Part shown: positions 52,047 through 64,000 of the stretch, in pieces
How the letters are laid out: the number at the start of each line of letters is the position of its first letter
Numbering within the stretch: the stretch's first letter is position 1
DNA from: Heterodontus francisci
Lineage: Eukaryota
Assembly: GCF_036365525.1 (NCBI RefSeq)
Contig: NC_090390.1
Location: 55,906,153-55,970,152, forward strand
DNA: 64,000 nt
Reading direction: 5' to 3'
Notes under the pieces: generated by a model
What the model saw: the letters and a program-made list of their open reading frames with translations, nothing else
Database searches by the model: none
What the model was told of the DNA's origin: nothing
Program-made: the position numbers and the translations under genes

Positions 52047-53370
52047 AAGAACATAAGAACTAAGAGCAGGAGTAGGCAATTCAGCCCCTCGAGCCTGCTC
52101 CACCATTCAATACGATCATGGCTGATCTCAGCTCGGCCTCAACTCCACTTTCCTGCCCATTCTCCATAATCCTTCAACCCATTACTAATTAAAAATCTGT
52201 CTATCTCCTCCTTAAACTTACTCAATGTTCCGGCATCCACCGCACTCTGGGGTAGTGAATTCTACAGACTCACGACCCTTTGAGAGAAGTAATTTCTCCT
52301 CATCTCTGGTTTAAATCTGCTACCCCTTATCCTAAAACTATGACCTCTCATTCTAGATTGCCCCACCAGAGGAAACATACTCTCTACGTCTACTTTGTCA
52401 ATCCCCTTATCATCCCATATACCTCAATTAGATCCCCTCTCATTCTTCTAAACTCTAGAGAGTAAAGGCCTAAACTGCTCCATCTCTCTTCATAAGACAA
52501 ACCTCTCATCTCTGGAATCAATCTAGTGAACTTCCTCTGAACTGCCTCCAATGCAACTACATCCCTCCTCAAGTAAGGGGACCAAAACTGCATGCAATAC
52601 TCCAGGTGCGGTCTCACTAATGCCTTGTACAGTTGCAGCAACACTTCCCTACTTACATACTCTATTCCTTCAGCAGCAAATGCCAAAATTCCATTTGCCT
52701 TCCTTATTACCTGCTGCACCTGCAAACTAGTTTTCTGCGATTCATGCACGAGGACACCCAGATCCATCTGCACCGAAGCACTCTGAAGTTTTTCTCCATT
52801 TAGATAATAATTTGCCTTTCTAATCTTCTGATCAAAATGGATAGCCTCACACTTATGCATGTTAATCTCCATCTGCCAAATTTTGACCCATTCACCTAAC
52901 CATTTGTAAATGTTTGATTTCTTTATTGCAACTTACTATCCCACCTATTTTAGTGTCATCTGCAAATTTGGCTATAGTACCTTCTATCCCTGCATCCAAG
53001 ACATTAATATAAATTGTAAATAATTGGGACCCGAGGACCGAACCCTGTGGCACCGCACTAGTTACATCTTGCCAACCAGAAAAGGACCCATTTATCCTGA
53101 CTCTCTGTTTTCTGTTGGTTAACCAATCCTCTATCAAAGCTAATAAATTGCCCCTAACCCCATGTGATCTTACCTTGTGTATTAACCTTTTGTGCGGCAC
53201 CTTATCAAATGCCTTCTGGAAGTCCAGATATACTACATCTACAGGATCCCCATTATCCACTTTGCTTGGTACATCTTCGAAGAACTCCAGCAAATTAGTC
53301 AAACACGATTTACCCTTCATAAAACCATGCTGACTCTGATGGATTGCGTATTGACTTTCTAAATGACTTG
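52047..53370 (-). mobile_element. CR1 LINE, 5'-truncated
   Basis: SQHGFMKGKSCLTNLLEFFE, YLDFQKAFD, FADD and RPHLEYC motifs, with a (TTCTTATG)-type tail at 52047. Confidence 0.93.
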
Positions 53371-55333
53371 AACCCACAAATTGCTTACTCAGAGTGAGAG
53401 TGAGACTGAGCAAAGGCTGATCTCCTGCCAGTGTCTGAGTAACTTCAGACCTGACGTGTGGTGAGTGGAACATGCTCGGGAGGAACAGGTGACTTTGGGC
53501 CTATGGTTCCCAAAGCTCTCCACCACTGGGGGTTTTCCTCACCTCTTGTCTGGGTCTGTTGTAGACACATTGATAGAGATTGATCACTGTGATTGGTCAA
53601 CAACTCCATTATCATTGTATCATGTGACTCCCAGGATGGTAGATGGCATCTATTCACACAGGCAGTTCCTACTCTTAAAATATGTAAGGTATGGGAGAGA
53701 GAAGGTAAACCAAGAGGAGGGCTGACAAGTGTGAGGCATAGTGTGGGGGTCATTTTTGTGAGTCAGGAGGAGCAGAAATCATCTTAAATGTATAAATTAA
53801 CTGTTTTTGAATGGCTTGCACTGGCCCCTTTATGGACTGCTGATTGGGTTTCTCAGCGCAGATACCAATGGGCGGTGTGTGCTTGGTAGCTGGTCATTGG
53901 TCCCCAGAATTTGCACTGGGGTCCTATTGATGTCATAGGGCCACAATTTGCATGAGCCAATGAGGTACCCATCTGTTTTAAGCAGCATCTGAACCATCCA
54001 TTTCAAGGACCCCACTAAGATGGTGGATACTCAGACGTCAGAAGGAACATGGTGGTACATTCTGTATCTCACTCATGCCTGAAAATGAGAATGAAAATTA
54101 GCTCCAGTGTAGGGAAGAAATCAACAAAAATCATATATACCCCTGCCGTCCTGACAGAAACTGGACAGATAGGGACTAACTCACTGATGTCATCCACCAA
54201 ACACACAGGCTATGATTTTAACTGCTTGTATGAATAGACGAGAAAGACATCTGTCAGGAACTGTCAAGTTTATTCCTTAAATATGCAGATTGGGCATCTG
54301 AAGATGCCATTGGAGCCCAACTGCTATTTTAAGCAAGGGCCTAAGTGGAGAAGCATATCCTGGGTCTCTCACAGTGCCAAGTTCAGGACAGTTTCCTGCC
54401 AGCCTTGGCCTTGGCCCTTTTCCATCCAATTCCCACGCTGAGTTCAATTTGGAGCTACAGAGTTTTCTTTTTATAAAGATCATTTATAAAAAAAACTTCA
54501 CAGTGTCTATAAAGTTACCCCATCACTCATTGCAAGTCATGTGAATTCTCAGCAAATACCATCTTTTACGTAACCAATAATATACCTGTATCTGACATAT
54601 CATGAGATCAACCACCCTTATGTTTTCTTTTGTTGCGATGGATAGCATTTGTTTACCTGTAAATAATATCTGATGATTTAACTGAGCAGCCTAATTTCAT
54701 CACTTCTTTGTTCCTTCATGGCAGTCTTCTATTGGTTCCATGTGTAGATTTGGAATTTATAGCATGATGCCCCTTCCCCTTCCAAAATGCAAGTCTCATG
54801 ACTTCTAAACTAGGCAGTTATGTATGCCCTCTTATTTTATGGGTCCTCCAAGTCCTGCTTTTCTAAATAATATTTCTACAAAAGGTAACTTGGATTTTGT
54901 CAAAGAATAAGTCTGATTGAAGCTTTGTTGAACAATGTGAAGGGACACATGGGGAGTTTTATCTGTGATGCATCAGTGCTCTTCGAATGGTTGAAGGCGC
55001 TTGGGCTGATGTGATTCAGAGTGGTTGCCATTTCTCCTGTGAATAAGAGGGAAGGGACTGTGCTAACATTTCACCAATTTTTCCAAACAGCAGATTGCTT
55101 TGGAGAAACCTGGTTAAAAATGTCCAAAACATGCACCTCATTAAATAAACATCACTAAAAAAAAAATCAGCACATCAAAAGAGTAGCAGAAGCTGAATAA
55201 CAATGCTAATTATCCTAGTGCGACAATGAGATTTCTCTGCTGGTGCTAGAGATCTTTCGAAACTGGTGCCTACCCCATCCGTATGATCCACTTGATCTTA
55301 TAAGATCTGAAATTTATGTAACATTAATACACA

Positions 55334-56152
55334 AGGGTGAATTTTACAGACCCCCCGAAGTCAGGGGTCGTGGTGGGGGGTCCGGACAATGCCTCTAGGA
55401 GAGGCTCGCCATGGGCCTTGTAAGCTGAAAGGCCCGACACCTTATTACTGGCATTGGCAAGGCCTCTCGGCAGCCCACGCGCCATTCGGCGGCAAGATCA
55501 AAATTTAAATATGTAAATTTATTAAAAGTAAAGAATTAAATACTTACCCGCTCCTGCTGTCGATCCCGGTGCAATATTCATGCCGGTGGCTGGCATTCCC
55601 GTGTCTTCAGATCTCCATCCAGTGATAAGATGTGGGACACTGGTGGGGAGGGGTTAGCAGGTAAGTATTTCAGTGCAGGGGCCAGGGAGCGGGGTCAAAC
55701 TAATGTAATTGGTTCAGGGGATGGTGGGAAGGGGTAAAGATTAAAGAGTATGAACTTTGCGGGGGGAAGGTCAGGGGGTAGGGGAAGTGTTTTGTGGGGG
55801 GAGAGGTCAAGTAGTTAATTACATGGTTATTGGGGCGGGGGGGGCGGGTGGAAGAGAGCTAAATTAAATGTTTTCAAAATTTTTTCAAACATCTCTCTTT
55901 AAAAATTTAAATGAAATAGAAGGGCTTTAAAAATGGCGTCAACGCCTGCGCAGTGCCACCTGATGCCATTGCCAAGGACAGACGGCCTGCCCCCTGCACA
56001 TCATCGGGGAGGAAAGGTGGTCCGCCCAGGCAATTTAAATGAGCCGTGGCGTCTAATATTGTGGCGGCTCCATGAAGTTCAGCCCGCACCTGCGGGCTGC
56101 TATTGTTTACAGCCGCTGCCAATCACGGTGGTGGCAACATAAATTCCAGCCC
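55334..56152. mobile_element. Harbinger MITE (~820 bp)
   Basis: TIR-like ends AGGGTGAATTTTAC / ATAAATTCCAGCCC and TSD ACA. Homologous to 61580-62229. Confidence 0.8.
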
Positions 56153-58173
56153 ACAGTTGTTTGTGAGGAACCAAATAAAGTTTTATTTAAAGTTTATATA
56201 AAAATGCTCTGTTGATGTTGTATTGGGAAAAGTCACTACCCTATATAGCACCATACCATGAAGGCAAGGGTAGATTCCATGTCGTTGCTGATTTAGCTAA
56301 TCTTAGCTGGGCAGTAATTGGGGGACTTAAATCAGCCTCAGTAACTTTGGGCTAGGGAATGCAAAACTTAACCAGTGTATCTGTTGTGATAGTGGAAGGA
56401 AGCAAAGCTATTTGAATACATCTTTATGCATATGTACGTGTCATGACCGGAAGTGATGGTTCACCCACGTGGTGCTGCCATGATGTCCAGCTATGAACAC
56501 AAGTAAGAATGGTCTCTCAATAAAGCACCAAGTACAACATCTATGCTGACTCTTCGACTGAGTTTATATTGATCTAAGTACAGATAATACAATATGGTGG
56601 CAGTGATGGGAACAGCAGCCTAACACGAAGTGGGAAACAAGCGCCACGATCCGATTATCGTTCTTACAACGTGAGTAACAAAAAATTAGAAGCGAGCTGA
56701 ACGTACTCTGGCTCTTTGCTCCGACCAGGCAGAGTAAATGCAGCAGCATTAGCTAATGAGTACAGCGATAATGTTTTTGGGCACGGGTTTTTACTGACAC
56801 CACCACCACACCTGCACACCAGTAACTAGCCCCTCTGCCAGAGGCCCTCCTGTCTCTGTAACCTTTAGGTCCACACTGCAGCTGCACAGCTCAGGATGCA
56901 GCTCCAGTCCAGCTCCGTGGCCATTGCAATCAGCTACCACTTCATGATAAAGACTCACTCTTTAGGGTGAGCAGTGACAGAGACACAGATCAGTTGCCTA
57001 GAAATGAATTGGAAGGTCTCTGATATCTCAGGAGAGTTTAAGCTGTTCAGACAAAGAATGGAATTTCGCCTTCTAGATAATGAGGTTGCAGATGCAGAAA
57101 AGCAAGCAATCAAAATTTAAATTGCAATAGGCAATGAAGGGTTTCATAGGATAAACACCTCCAGTCTATTCGAAACCAATCTGAAATATCCTGCGAAGCT
57201 CTGGTCGACGCTGGAAGACCAACTTAAAGTGGAGATAAATTTCAGAATTCATCGTTTAGAGCTTATGAGGTATGAGATTATTGACATGTTTGTCAGTAGG
57301 TGCAGAGACAAGGAAAGAAATACGACTTCAAAGATGCAGAGCTCTCTGAGCATATCATGGAATTAGTCATCGTGTCCACACCAATAGAAGCATTCCAGAA
57401 GGATTTGCGCAACAAGACGAAGGGACAAAGCATAGATAGCGTGTTACAAGATGGATGGAAGTATGAAGCTGTTGTAGCAGGGAGACAATGCTTACAAGCT
57501 CTGGACTCTGGAACAACCATTGGTGCCATATTGACAGCACCTAAGCAGAAGAAGATGTGTACTGTGGGTTCTTCCATCAGACATATAAGTGCCCAGGTAA
57601 TAGAGACAGATGCAAGGCCTGCAGATTTAAACAGCACTGGGCTAAGTTATGCAGAAAGTCCATTCATAAGAACAAAGGGAGAAGCCAGAGCAGAGCTTCA
57701 GCTGTATACACACGCCACCAAAAAGTACAGGCAGACAGGACTCATCTCAGCATCGCCAGAAATATCATCCCGTCAACGAAATAAGCAAACACCAGACCAG
57801 AGGAGAAGAGACAGATGGAGATAATACACCACAGACTATGAGCAACTATTTCACACAGGTTGACCCTGTAGCAAAGACAGAAGCCTTCGCACACTGGAGA
57901 TCATATGTCCAAGCAAGACTGGAAAGCATCGTCTGTGCACAAAAATTAACACAAGAGCAAGTGGCAATACACTTCCACTGTAGACCCTAAAGGACATGGA
58001 CAGGGAGAAATGGATGTCAATAATCCAGCCTACCAGTGTGAAGCTCACTGCCTACAATGGCCGCCAATACACTGACCTTGAAGTGTAGATACAAAGGTTC
58101 CCCCTGGTCAGGACAAACATTTTATATCATGGATGTTTCAGGAACCGCAGGGCAGGGTTGCCAGCATGCAACA

Positions 58174-58203
58174 ACTTACCTGGCAGGGGAAGAAACCATG
58201 ATC
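58174..58203 (+). ncRNA. U1 snRNA 5' fragment (nt ~3-31), not a complete gene
   Basis: ACTTACCTGGCAGGGGAAGAAACCATGATC versus vertebrate U1 ACTTACCTGGCAGGGGAGATACCATGATC: one insertion and one substitution. Similarity stops abruptly. Confidence 0.85.
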
Positions 58204-58242
58204 TGTGGGATTTGATCCTGTTCCAGGTAGGTTTTGAGTAAA

Positions 58243-59775
58243 ATGGCTGCAACTAATTCTAGAGATTCAGGCAAGGGAGTGCGTGACACCGTTCGGGTGG
58301 GGGTGAAGGATAATGAAGGAGGTGCAGCTGTTGACCACATCTTCTTCATGGAGATAATCCTTATTGATTGCTGTGGATTCCAAACTGCAGACATCTTCTG
58401 CCTGCAGGACTTCCCCAGCAGTGGATATTTCGATGTGACGTTCAAGAATGTGGCAGGATGCATTAAGTATTAGGTTCATGAAGGTGTTCGAGGAGAGGGG
58501 AAACCAGGCATCGCTGTCAATCCTCTCAGTGGAGCCACTCTTCACGCTGCTGTCACAATGCGACTGGGTGGTGATAATCCACCTCTACAACCCCCATGTC
58601 CCTGTCATGGATGTACTCACATTCCTTGCCAGGTACATCGAGGGGGCCGGCAGCAGTACTGATGTCAAGGACCCATTTGGGATTTGGACCAGCAAGCGGC
58701 AGGTCAAGGTGACCTTGAAAATCGATGCCAGTGGAGCTATCATCCATCCTCCCTCGAGCTTCACTATCGGGGGATGTCGAGGCTTCTTGGTCTATGCAGG
58801 GCAGCCCAGAGTTTGTCGTACCTGTGGCAAATCTGGTCACGTGGCGGCCAACTGCAGCACAGTCGTCTGCAAGAACTGCAAGCAGGAAGGTGATCAGACA
58901 AAGGACTGTAAACAGAGTAAGTGCTGCAACCTGTGCGGTGGGGCAGGCCACCTCTACAGAACCTGCCCCAAATGCTGCCTCAGTTATGCATAGGTGACAA
59001 GGTCCAAGGAAAGGCCGGGAGAAGCAACGGTGAACGTATCTGGTGCTGGGAAGGAGTCAAGAAATCCTCCCCATAGCCAGGAAAGTCCATCTGAGAAGGA
59101 GAAGAAACCAGCGACCCAACACCTACCCTGTGCCCGGGATCTCCTCCTCTATAGACAGAATCAATGGAGGAGGAGGCAGCAGATGGACAAACTGGTCAGT
59201 TGGCAAGTGGTAAAAAGGAAAACCACAAAGAAGAAGCCTCCAAAAAGGAAACAGGTCACCACCCAAACCAGTGGCAAGAGGAGACTACCGTCTGATACAG
59301 ACTACAGCAGTTCCTCCTCATTGGACGAGGAAAGGCCAGAAAGACAGCACCTGCAAAAGATGTAGCAGAACTCAAAAGAGCTGGAAGAGAAAGCCCACGA
59401 GCTCCAGGGCACTGGAAGCTGTGATGGGCCCAGCGCACCCCAACCTCAAAGCGCCGAACCCAGCACACTGCAGCTCCGGGAGACTGAGAACAGTGAAGCA
59501 TCTGGCACACTCCAGCTCCAGGAAGCCAGGAGCAGTGATGTCTTCAAGGAGGGACAGAAATGAAAGACACCACCAGCAGCGGACAGCCCAAGCCTTGCTG
59601 CCTACAAAACCCCCCCGATGTCACCCCTGTGGATCAAACCCCCATGAGTCACCAGGAGGGATTTCTGAGCCCAACGACTGTGAAACAGCTTGTGTACACT
59701 ATGGGTATGCAGGAATACACCCAAGGACTGGGACTAGCAAGAACAACTGGTGTGGTGAGCAACACCCAATTTTAA
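58243..59775 (+). pseudogene. Tx1 ORF1 (ZCCHC3-like, zinc-knuckle RNA-binding protein), disrupted
   Basis: IFCLQDFPSSGYFDVTF, DPFGIWT.KRQV, YAGQPRVCRTCGKSGHVAANC, CKNCKQEG, CNLCGGAGHLYRTC, with frameshifts and stops. Confidence 0.88.
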
Positions 59776-59776
59776 A

Positions 59777-61580
59777 ACGGGTATAAAGATTGTTTTGATT
59801 AATGTGCGTAGCGTTAAATCCACTACACGATGTGTTTCGACTTTGAACTACCTCGCCAAGGTTTAAGCTGACGTACTGTTTCTGCAGGAGTGTAGAATTC
59901 CACACCTCAGCACCTACAGGCAATGGTCGCGATGGTGGTCCCATGGGCCATCGATCTGGTCAGGGGGTAATGATTGCCGTTCCTCCGGCCTGGGTATTCT
60001 GCTGCGGGGAGGCAACTTCACCATCTCCGAAGTTAAGGAGGTGCTGGGCGGTCGCCTCCTCATAGCAGATGTAATGTACAACAATGCTTCACTCCAGTTA
60101 ATCAATTTATACGCCCAGGTCCAATACAGCGAGTGACTCACTGTCCTCCAGTAGCTCCCACTGCTGCTGGCAACATCCAGGCTGGTCATTGTTGGCGGTG
60201 AGTTCAACTGCATCATTAACGCAGCTGGACAATCCGGCAATGACGACAGCAAACTGGACGCTACGTCCAGATTCCTAATGGAAACAGTAAAAGATGCCAA
60301 ACTTCAGCACGACATCTTCATCAAACCTGCAGACGGAGCACAGCATAGATACACCTGGTCAAGACCAGACGGGTCTGCCCATTCCAGGATTGACTTCCTG
60401 TTTGGGTCCCGTGCTTTCATGGCAAGATCCACCAATGTCAAGCCGGTGTTCTTCTCTGACCACTACCTCTTACTGTCACTTACAGGACAACTAGCGGGTT
60501 GGAAGGGGGACATGGAAGCTGCATGTTACACTGCTAACCCCAGAGAACATGGAGGAACTCAAAAGGGATTACAAAGGTTGGAGAACCGTGAAACCCTTCT
60601 TTGAGTCTCTGGTGCACTGGTGGGAAACGATCAAGGTGAACATCAAGAGGTTCTTTATCCTCAAAGGTGTTCAGAGGGCGAGAGAGAGTGACAGAGGGAA
60701 ATGTCCCGACTCCAGAAAAGAATGCAAAATCTACTCCGACTGCGGTTTATGGGGGTCGAGGTCGAGGAGGATTTCCAAGAGGTGAAGAGCCAGCAGGCCT
60801 CACTCTTTGCCACGGAGGCCTCCAAGATCATCTTCCGGTCCAGAGTCCGCTCCGTTGAGCAGGATGAGATGTGCTCGTGTTTCTTCTTCCAAAAGGTTCA
60901 CACAGAGAGCTCTGTGATCAGCAGCCTGAAGGAAGAGGATGGCTCGGTAACGTCTTCGCAGTCCGACATACAAAGGATCAGCAAATCCTTTTATGCTGGG
61001 CTGTACGAAGTGAAGCCCATGGACAGAAAGGCCTCCCAGTCCTTCCTGTCATCTATCACGGAAGTCTTAGATGACAGCATGCGGGAGAGTCTGGACAAAT
61101 CGCTAACTCTGGACGAGCTGACAAAGGCCGTCAGGTCCTTGGAGACGAGTAAAACTCCCGGAAGTGACGGCTTACCGGTTGAGTTGTATTCGGCTCTGTG
61201 GGATTGGATCAGCCCAGACTTGCTGGAAGTATACAAGAGTATGCTCCTGGCCGGCAGCATGTCAGAATCCATGAGGAAAGGCATCATCACCCTCATCGAC
61301 AAGCGGAAGGGGGAGAGGGCAGAAATCAGAAATTGCCGGCCAATCTCACTGCTTAATGGAGACTGCAAGTTCTGTCCAAAGTCATCGCCAGTCGGGTCAA
61401 GTGTGCTCTGGAGTTGGTAATTCATCCTGACCAGACCTGTACTGTACCCGGCAGGAAGCTCTCTGTTAGTCTCGCGCTACCCAGGGATACGATCACCTAT
61501 GTATGGGACAGGAGTGTGGACACCCGCCTCATCAGTTGGATCAGAAGGCTTTTGACAGGATATTGCACACATACATGATG
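59777..61580 (+). pseudogene. Tx1 ORF2 (APE endonuclease and start of RT), disrupted and truncated
   Basis: INVRS, LFLQEC, INLYA, VGGEFN, SRIDF, FSDH, KTPGSDGLPVELY, RPISLLN, KAFDR. Confidence 0.9.
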
Positions 61581-62229
61581 GCGGCAATTTAAATATTTAA
61601 ATAAATTAAAATAAGTGAATTAATTAATCTCATGTTGCCTCCTGATGTCCCGCCGCGATCTTCAGCCAGGAGGCCAGCACTGCTGCGCGTTCGGATCCCC
61701 GTCCAGGGAAACAAGGTGAAACACTTGTTGGGGGGGGGCGGTAGGTTTATCAGAGCAGGAGGGGGGGTAACAGGGTCAAATTAGCATCATGGGGGTAGGG
61801 GATAGAGGGAAGGTTGGTAGTTGAAAGTTTCTGCAGCTTGGGGGGCTGGGGATGGTCAGATTGTAAAGGTAAGTGTATTGGTGGGGGAAAGGGCAAATAA
61901 TTAATTTAATTTTTATAGGGGTGGGAGAGGGGCAAAAGAGATATATTTATTTATTTTAATTCCATTTCCCTTTAGATATTTAAATTTCCCTGTAGGGCTG
62001 ACAGCTCTTTAAAAATAGTGTCAGTGCCTATGCACAGGCAGCTGACACCATTGCCGGAAAAGGACAGCCCGTCCCCTCCACGTGATCGGGGATGAGAGGG
62101 CGGGGGGAGTGCGGCCTGCCCTGGCTATTTAAATGAGCTGCCACATGGAAGATTGTGGCAGCTCTGTGACATGCAGCCTTTTTTTTTCACCCACCGTCGA
62201 ATCGGCGGCGGGCACATAAAATTCAGCCG
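61580..62229. mobile_element. Harbinger MITE lacking its left end
   Basis: Colinear with 55488-56152, right TIR ATAAAATTCAGCCG. The Gypsy pol resumes right after it. Confidence 0.78.
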
Positions 62230-64000
62230 CCTGTTTCTCTGGCAAGATTACCATCAACATCAACATTAAAACAGGCACTCTCAGCCAAATCATGCCTACT
62301 ACGACCCACAGAAAGTGATAACACTGGAGTTAGATGCCTCACAGAAAAGCCTTGTGGTGTGCCTCCTGCAGGACGGCAAACCAATAGCATTTGGATCGAA
62401 GAGTCTATTGTCTGCCAAGGCAAACTACTCAAACATTGAACATGAGACTCTAGCATTCATTTTTGGAATCACCAGATTCCACACATATCTGTTTGGTAAG
62501 GAATTCACAGTTGAAACGGAACACAAACCTCTAGAAATGATTTGGAGGAAGCCGTTTACCCATGCTCCGCCTCACTTCCAGAGATTGCTATGAAGATCCA
62601 AGGTTACAGTTGCGATGCCAGGTACGAACCTGACAATCAGATGGTTCTGTCAGATGCACTGAGCAGACTGCTTAACCCCGGAAAGACACGGGATATACTG
62701 CTTGACTTCCAGGTCAACGAGGTAGCGCGGACATAAAGGATTTCTACAGCATCGACCTGATGTGTTTTGGTCACAGCAAATGAGAGGTACTCCAGAGAGG
62801 GACTTCCCTAGTCCCCTATGGCAGATCGCCAGAAACCATCAAGGAGATACCTGCAGACCTGAGGATATACTGGCCATATTGGGATCAGATTGGCATATTG
62901 AACGGAGTGCTTTTCAAAGGCTACCAGACATTGCTTCCAGCGACGCTGTGCTCAGGCCTACTTCGTCAGCTTCACCAGGCCATATGGGGATTGAAAAGAC
63001 AAGACGTCTTGCTTGTGGATCAGTGTTCTGGCCTGGCATTAGCAAAGATATCAACCTGGTCATAAAGGATTGCGTTGCTTGCCAAGAACACCAAGCCAAA
63101 CAACAGAAGAAGCCACCCCAGCTACACAATATCCCATCCTCTCCATGAACCAAGCTAGTGATGGACCTGCTTGCTGTCGACAAAGAGGACGACTTACTCT
63201 TAACTGATTACCATTCCAAGCATCCGATCATTCAAAGGCTCAGGAATGCGTCAGGTGCAACAGTGACCAGTACTGTTAGCGCCATTTTCAGCCTTTTCGG
63301 TGCCCCAATGGAAGTTGTATCAGACAATAGTCCACAGTACAAAGGAAAATGCTTCTAAGACATGTGCAAGAAACGGTCTGTCAATCACAGCATCTCCCCG
63401 GTAGTCTCAATCCAATGGATTGGCTGAGCACATGGTCAGAATGATGAAATCTCTGATCAGGAAATGCATAGAAACTGGACAAGACGTCCAGCTTGCGATG
63501 TGACATCTTCATGCAAATCTGTTGGATTCCAAATCGCTGTCCCCAGCTGAAATCAGTTCGGTTGGCCAGTGAGGACCACTCTCCCAAGCCATCACCTCAC
63601 AAAGTCATCTTCGATCACAGACCAAATGCAACAAAGACAGAACAGGATGAAGGGCACTCATGATAAACATGCCATTGCAGAACTACCTTCACTCCATGTC
63701 AGTCAGAAGGTAAGAGCGTTTATCCCCTCAAAAGTGTTGAAAGTTTGCAGGGAACCATGATCCTATGAGGTGACGTGACAACAGTGAATAGAACTACACT
63801 AAGAAGAAGTAAGTCTCACCTCAGAGAACTCTATGTCAGCCAGGCATGGGACAATCCAACAGCATTGCCTACGCACAAACGCGTTCGCATTGCCAATGAA
63901 GGAGCAACAAGTATCAAACCGAGCACACCAAAACCTGAAGACAGCCATTCCAAACCCATACCTCAGGCCAAGAAAACCAGGAGAGGAAGGGGTCTGAGGC

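Follow-up and report, generated by a model that had tools for sequence, protein, structure and literature searches.

The window analysed here, a 64,000-nucleotide stretch of Heterodontus francisci DNA on contig C20 of the 6.0-Gb genome that we searched, contains a Tx1-type retrotransposon that begins with the 5' end of U1 snRNA and lies outside any U1 gene. We asked how such a head came to be there, since a preliminary description had left two possibilities: a chimera freshly made at a U1 gene, or a head adopted permanently by the family. Compared with the genome's own U1, the head corresponds to U1 nt 3-31 with 28 of 29 positions identical and one inserted base, and its first 16 bases match U1 exactly. 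In a lenient-gap alignment, a weak control, the head scored 50 against 39-47 for shuffled sequences, none of 20 reaching 50. An Rfam scan of 54000-64000 missed the 30-nt head and returned 8 weak unrelated matches. The decisive evidence that the head is real is that the same head is present on all 38 close copies examined. The comparison with the upstream sequence of the genome's U1 genes revealed no U1 promoter 5' of the head, and the ORF1 ATG at 58243 follows the head end by 39 bp. In these respects the preliminary description was accurate. The features are collected in Table 1.

Table 1. Features of the Tx1 copy and its host element in the window
Feature	Position	Strand	Basis
U1-derived head with one inserted base and one mismatch	58174..58203	+	common to 38/38 close copies
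Remainder of the short 5' UTR	58204..58242	+	comparison with long-UTR subfamilies
Ten bases complementary to head nt 3-12, 5'-splice-donor-like	58223..58232	+	predicted fold
ORF1 with stops and frameshifts; two ZCCHC3-type RNA-binding domains, CCHC knuckles	58243..59766	+	Pfam, tblastn
Broken ORF2 with AP endonuclease and the beginning of reverse transcriptase	59777..61581	+	tblastn, domains of relatives
Gypsy RNase H and integrase zinc-binding pieces (host element, context only)	62270..63145	+	Pfam

The window copy is decayed. With an intact relative as the tblastn query, ORF1 was placed at 58243-59766, and residues 2-601 of the 1135 residues of ORF2 at 59780-61575. The ORF2 start codon is mutated, and the 3' half and the tail are absent. 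The copy ends at about 61581 and is therefore without a 3' end or a target-site duplication (TSD). Both RNA-binding domain models built on the vertebrate gene ZCCHC3 match ORF1, at 58243-58990. The surroundings had been described as a Gypsy element; Pfam supports this downstream only (RNase H at 62270-62590, integrase zinc finger at 62726-63145), and the stretch just upstream of the head, which we take to be the end of a Gypsy protease, gave no retroelement Pfam match. A different repeat, 66% like window positions 55502-56084, occupies 61582-62250 in place of the Tx1 3' half and the Gypsy reverse transcriptase. Pieces of another LINE reverse transcriptase, presumably CR1-like, lie on the minus strand at 52390-53500.

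The head proved to be a family trait. A search with the first 327 bases of the element yielded 2,353 candidates, 40 of which were scored. All 30 loci that were cut out begin with the U1 head and have unrelated flanks. Of 39 close copies fetched at full length, 38 were usable (L059, oriented on its second copy, was dropped); their flanks share almost nothing with each other. The head starts at U1 nt 1-11 in all 38, and at nt 1-3 in 20 of them. The U1 match ends at nt 32 in 33 of the 38; the family head extends to nt 32 rather than nt 31. The UTR core of the window type was found at 483 sites at up to 2 mismatches. Exact U1 nt 1-19 occurs at 155 sites genome-wide, 100 of which were listed; among the 70 dispersed sites that we read, 69 head a Tx1 element of the window lineage and one is a U1 pseudogene. 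The suggestion of a permanently adopted head thus holds for the window subfamily. A U1 promoter lay upstream of none of 99 copies examined, and neither U1, U2 nor U5 followed any of 84 tails. Because the head is family-wide and neither a U1 promoter nor U1, U2 or U5 sequence flanks these copies, we regard the broken copy in the window as an ordinary member of its family, dispersed like the others.

Full copies measure 5.2-5.3 kb. They show the features of the Tx1 clade: an ORF1 with CCHC zinc knuckles, an ORF2 with AP endonuclease and reverse transcriptase (both by Pfam), an A tail and a TSD. The ORF2 score was 320 bits with Xenopus TX1 ORF2 and, from a different database, 286 with human L1 ORF2. 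Its best matches were unnamed or amphibian proteins (45-48%), and no sequence named Keno was among its 78 matches. Tails of the young type number 6,751 genome-wide, about 98% of them off target. Dispersed copies often stand 2-45 bp behind an A tail of the same lineage, head to tail, as was seen at eight loci (L047, L059, L060, L133, L140, L170, L236 and L252). Part of the young element was present in contigs of 12 of the 15 runs listed, from 6 studies; nearly all of these runs could only be guessed to be RNA, and the matches do not speak to expression.

Insertions in U1 genes were found directly. There are 36 promoter-bearing U1 loci, 34 intact and two interrupted in place. At the first (L203), the promoter and U1 nt 1-54 are followed by a tandem of two full-length copies whose ORF1 and ORF2 are open, and then by U1 nt 40-164. 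At the second (L205), the promoter and U1 nt 1-55 are followed by a 250-bp 3' fragment of the element and again by U1 nt 40-164. An A run before the middle of U1 was present at four sites, and U1 resumes at nt 40 in all four. The insertion point therefore lies between nt 39 and 40, with nt 40-54 as the TSD, and not near nt 31 as first proposed. The family tail joined to U1 nt 41-52 gave 200 matches, of which 100 were listed and 15 read; most of the 200 are apparently duplicates of two old events. In all, we distinguished 12 insertion events in U1 genes, at nt 38-41, two of them in genes with intact promoters. By their tails, four resemble the window subfamily (L223, L366, L370 and L377), four are young, one is nearer the young type, one is intermediate (L369), and two are divergent or too short to place (L367 and L368). 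By chance, about 0.0001 young insertions would be expected in a 4-base interval of 36 U1 genes, against four seen; this estimate used the 6,751 young-type tails, and one of the four insertions has lost its promoter side. One further insertion, in a decayed U1, lies at about nt 75, and the position rule is therefore not absolute. None of the 36 promoter-bearing loci carries a window-type copy today; thus, the master of the window subfamily was not seen.

Raw insertion counts are inflated by array and segmental duplication. On contig C41, many intact U1 genes (L184-L202 and L212-L221) are followed, 170-350 bp downstream, by an old Tx1 fragment that they share through duplication. On contigs C28, C35, C39, C50, C334, C712 and other unplaced contigs, a unit of a Tx1 tail and a decayed U1 3' half (L371-L376, L379 and L380) has been amplified to well over a hundred near-identical copies. 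A copy at C13:28021015, examined for 3' transduction of a whole U1-Tx1-U1 transcript, is 5'-truncated and has no clear TSD.

The same lineage inserts in U2 and U5 genes. The U2 arrays consist of 577-bp units, with 1,267 promoter-plus-U2 matches. An A run before U2 gave 1,544 matches. As each site in the fetched arrays accounts for 11 matches, this corresponds to about 140 sites. In the fetched stretches, 28 of 32 tails are directly followed by U2; these belong to the young subfamily, and U2 resumes at nt 39 (15 tails), 36 (5), 33 (5), 49 (2) or 58 (1). In the five array stretches, U2 nt 33-58 follows the tail in 26 of 26 cases, no tail lies in the spacer between U2 genes, and 10 distinct truncation junctions are present. 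No match was obtained for window-type tails at the U2 site. Two copies lie in the U5 cluster. Their tails differ and they occupy different U5 variants; U5 resumes at nt 37 after each, and one of them is a window-type copy. Exact-pattern searches of the few U4 and U6 genes, which have low power, found no tails in either. In every case read, the insertion runs in the sense of the host snRNA gene, with a TSD of about 15 bp. In the assembly, about one U2 gene in ten is interrupted, as are 2 of the 36 promoter-bearing U1 genes. The idea of a U1-targeting family therefore stands as far as insertion in U1 genes goes, two with intact promoters, and falls short in that U2 and U5 genes are also used and most copies are dispersed. 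Both possibilities of the preliminary description, insertion in U1 genes and a permanent head, are supported, at different levels.

Taken together, we consider it probable that this lineage inserts some 37-41 bases behind the starts of U1, U2 and U5 genes, where it is likely read from the host promoter, and that its head likely consists of the first bases of the host gene. The junctions of additional heads bear on this reading. In the youngest subfamily, U2 nt 1-53 stands first and a decaying U1 head comes after it, as seen in 28 of the 30 loci read, the other two being U2 genes. In all 13 full-length array copies, the U2 head merges with the host U2 without duplication; when the same U2-headed element sits in a U1 gene, the U2 head is retained behind U1 nt 54. 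Extra U1 heads on single copies end at nt 48, 48, 51, 51, 51, 55 and 56, a U2 head at nt 47, a U4 head at nt 55 and a U5 head at about nt 44; the U2 head of the youngest subfamily ends at nt 53. The 5' junctions of insertions within genes lie at U2 nt 38-59, mostly 50-59, and at U1 nt 54-55. Extra heads thus end where in-gene 5' junctions would lie, nearly all at nt 44-56. The exception is L151, with a U1 extension to nt 20 followed by 21 unrelated bases. Two dispersed tandems (L367 and L370/L390) have U1 nt 40-54 between their two copies and a single outer TSD, as expected of daughters of tandem copies inside a U1 gene, and we read them as such.

The U4 nt 1-55 head on a young element lies within a 14-bp TSD (L385/L389, C334:1767194, minus strand) and has a CR1-like flank; 26 similar 57-nt U4 matches on unplaced contigs, one of which was read, may be amplified copies of this locus. 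The inserted base of the window head recurs in the U1 nt 1-51 extension at L167, which hints at an origin of this variant in a form of the U1 gene that the genome no longer has. Seven U1 fragments (L080, L090, L173, L177, L179, L182 and L208) are fused to one and the same start, presumably that of a SINE, with U1 ending at nt 71, about 107 or about 157. These are likely template-switch chimeras of another element.

Heads could also arise by template jumping or RNA joining onto free snRNA, with insertion into snRNA genes a separate habit and transcription driven by other upstream promoters. The accessible part of PMC4494074 (Kojima 2015) reads 26 U1-like 5' extensions on SINEU-2 in this way, and the U1-SINE fusions indicate that template switching onto U1 RNA appears to occur in the shark genome too. 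The nt 20 junction of L151 is in keeping with such an origin, as are L120, where U1 nt 1-48 runs into a 5'-truncated ORF1 at a junction that no surviving U1 gene shows, and the existence of a U4 head when the low-power search saw no insertion in U4 genes. However, free snRNA would not by itself explain why Tx1 heads cluster at the in-gene junctions while the SINE fusions end elsewhere, and the dispersed tandems, with U1 nt 40-54 as spacer, must stem from copies within a U1 gene. A full-length snRNA head or a U6 head was seen at none of the loci read, which were not a systematic sample for either. We therefore regard an origin of the heads from free snRNA as unlikely.

With heads borrowed from the host promoter, as we favour, the choice of site can be considered separately. 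Compared across 33 flanking positions, the U1 and U2 sites show an identity of 0.21 and the U2 and U5 sites one of 0.42, which are the extremes among the three; a pyrimidine run lies just downstream of each. The U1, U2 and U5 sites are alike in position, not in sequence. A clear TSD, with a median of 15 bp, was present in 41 of 118 copies examined, and the likeness of these 41 off-target sites to the U1, U2 and U5 sites is at chance level (p 0.16-0.46). Their sole common feature is a pyrimidine-purine step at the nick, in 28 of the 41. A shared sequence motif was not found among the 41 off-target and the snRNA sites.

A choice by sequence, in which the endonuclease reads a common motif or the RNA head leads the element to the gene that it matches, would be compatible with host-promoter heads. 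The specificity of Keno is ascribed to its endonuclease in the accessible part of PMC4494074. The 0.42 identity of the U2 and U5 sites and the common pyrimidine run would suit a motif, and the seamless U2 junctions suggest that homology is used at the 5' end. The presence of U1-headed tails at the U1 site and their absence from the U2 site fits homology between head and target better than pure position; fast turnover of the U2 arrays could also account for the missing tails. Against this, the U1 and U2 sites are barely alike, off-target sites resemble none of the three, the U2-headed subfamily is found at the U1 site four times, and a window-type copy sits in a U5 gene. We judge a sequence-read site quite improbable. 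The original proposal, in which the family is confined to U1 and inserts near nt 31 and the window copy is a newly made off-target chimera, has next to no likelihood left: the U1 match visible in the window does end at nt 31, but no tail of the lineage stands before U1 nt 4-34 (the pattern search found one site, a U1 pseudogene), and the head is inherited, composite and present at no fewer than the 483 sites of the UTR core.

The succession of heads was examined in ORF1 trees. The first used 121 of 141 rows, 20 being too short, and the second 44 of the 121, without L168, L141 and L120. The trees are ladder-like, from long-UTR U1 heads through short-UTR U1 heads, which include the window copy, to U2 heads. 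In the 44-row tree, rooted on the most divergent copy, U2-headed copies nest inside the short-U1-headed ones, and an AU test rejects a monophyletic short-U1 group (p 5e-6). Median pairwise identity is 0.957 among U2-headed, 0.889 among short-UTR U1-headed and 0.81 among long-UTR U1-headed copies; given the highest within-group identity, U2-headed copies are the youngest. As judged from the long-UTR ancestors, the UTR remainder of the window copy is likely a remnant of an older U1-derived layer, joined by deletion to the segment before their ATG.

The preliminary description had also pointed to a U1 5' end able to pair with 5' splice sites. In the predicted fold of the window 5' UTR, head nt 3-12 pair with 58223-58232 (z -3.5, 1 of 200 shuffles), and the predicted hairpin closes over the whole 70-nt UTR. 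It is predicted in 63 of 66 short-UTR, 2 of 17 long-UTR and none of 30 U2-headed copies, which are not independent of one another. We rejected the hairpin as an ancient conserved feature, as it is confined almost wholly to short-UTR copies. The model suggests that the U1 5' end is masked rather than free in the short-UTR subfamily, which weakens the case for splice-site pairing. Splicing from a donor-like site at 58226/58227 to an acceptor-like site before the poly(A) signal was likewise discarded: no spliced retrocopy was found at 2 mismatches, a threshold at which old copies could be missed. In the subfamilies read, the 3' UTR (for example in L041, L043 and L225) contains a pyrimidine run ending in AG, resembling a 3' splice site, about 10 nt before the poly(A) signal.

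We propose the following cycle. In-gene copies would act as the principal sources of new insertions, since they have the Pol II snRNA promoter upstream and would be transcribed from it. Their transcript would begin with host snRNA nt 1 to about 54. Reinsertion into the same gene type would renew the head, whereas another gene type would add a new one. Insertion off target would leave headed, promoterless copies such as that in the window. A head would become fixed when a chimera founds a subfamily, and would then erode by deletion and mutation, as the nt 1-32 head of the window type may have done. The element would find its site by gaining access to the snRNA transcription machinery, or by touching it, shortly after the start of the gene, and a loosely specific endonuclease would nick the nearest pyrimidine-purine step. 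On the arrangement of the sequences, the borrowing of the promoter is the step in which we place most confidence and appears quite probable; for the positional choice of site we would put the chances about even. A more far-reaching version remains tentative, and we lean slightly against it: the lineage would lack an own promoter, the Pol II snRNA genes would together form one target class reached by tethering about 40 nt behind their starts whatever the sequence there, masters would exist only within genes, and the 5' UTR would record the promoters used, namely U1, U1 again and U2, with U4 and U5 as side branches.

Several elements with related habits are known. Keno, of the Tx1 clade, has an AP endonuclease and is specific for the U2 snRNA gene, and Utopia uses U2 nt 39, stated to be identical to the site of Keno (accessible parts of PMC4494074 and PMC4640811 for Keno, PMC4640811 for Utopia). 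The shark lineage resembles Keno in its AP endonuclease and reverse transcriptase, in its tandem insertions and in its commonest U2 junction, nt 39 (15 of 28). Unlike Keno, it is not U2-specific, as it also uses U1 (nt 38-41) and U5 (nt 37), and the roughly 140 U2 sites stand beside 6,751 young-type tails. It also differs from Keno in using several U2 positions (33, 36, 39, 49 and 58), in the off-target location of about 98% of young copies, and in carrying snRNA heads on dispersed copies.

Among crocodilian Tx1-Mar families, the accessible part of PMC4494074 describes U1-headed Tx1-2_Crp, Tx1-2B_Crp and Tx1-4_AMi and U2-headed Tx1-11_Crp, and reports that they cluster with Keno. According to the same part, they prefer Mariner-N4 or LTR elements, insertion into U1 genes is not reported, and U5 is among the Tx1 targets in a figure legend. 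It favours template switching and leaves open how SINEU and snRNA-headed elements are transcribed. The shark lineage is likewise an autonomous Tx1 with a fixed snRNA-derived 5' head; it differs from the crocodilian families in its in-gene copies, its U4 and U5 heads and the succession of heads within one genome. Like SINEU-1, -2 and -3 (PMC4494074, accessible part), it has stacked U1 and U2 pieces at the 5' end and clustered 3' ends of the extensions, whereas SINEU elements are short and non-coding and the shark element is an autonomous 5.2-5.3 kb LINE with two ORFs. It shares a fixed insertion place in snRNA genes with Dada-U1 (PMC3706591) and Utopia (PMC4640811), as far as the accessible parts of these papers tell. 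Utopia has a restriction-like endonuclease and Dada-U1 is a DNA transposon with a DDE transposase, unlike the AP endonuclease and reverse transcriptase here; each has one target gene, and Dada-U1 makes a 6-bp TSD at another U1 site. The accessible part of PMC4640811 lists only Keno, Utopia, Dada-U1 and Dada-U6 as snRNA-targeting elements. In the literature searched, mostly open-access and without Repbase, we found neither a LINE inserting in U1 genes nor a family using several snRNA genes. This search includes the accessible parts of PMC3706591 and PMC8869645, and the supplements of PMC4494074 may list U1- or U5-targeting Tx1 elements. U1-headed Tx1s and U2 targeting are already published.

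Ty3 and TRE5 insert at Pol III genes in a position-specific manner. R2 is co-transcribed with rDNA (PMC4494074, accessible part). The shark lineage would resemble all three if its site is set by the distance from the start site and its RNA comes from the host promoter. It is unlike Ty3 and TRE5 in that the hosts are Pol II snRNA genes, and a tethering factor is purely hypothetical here.

The genome retains the intermediates: copies still intact stand behind U1 and U2 promoters, daughters bear parts of the target, and the heads form a dated series. As these are present in one genome, the question of transcription is testable by 5' end mapping. That one element uses three dissimilar sites, all equally far from the start site, challenges the view that sequence reading by the endonuclease determines the targets of Tx1 elements. 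If our reading is true, this lineage would be a natural insertion system aimed at multicopy snRNA genes. Should the more far-reaching version hold, it would be a Pol II counterpart of Ty3-type promoter targeting, the specificity of Keno would be partly positional, and the transcription of SINEU and snRNA-headed Tx1 elements would be explained.
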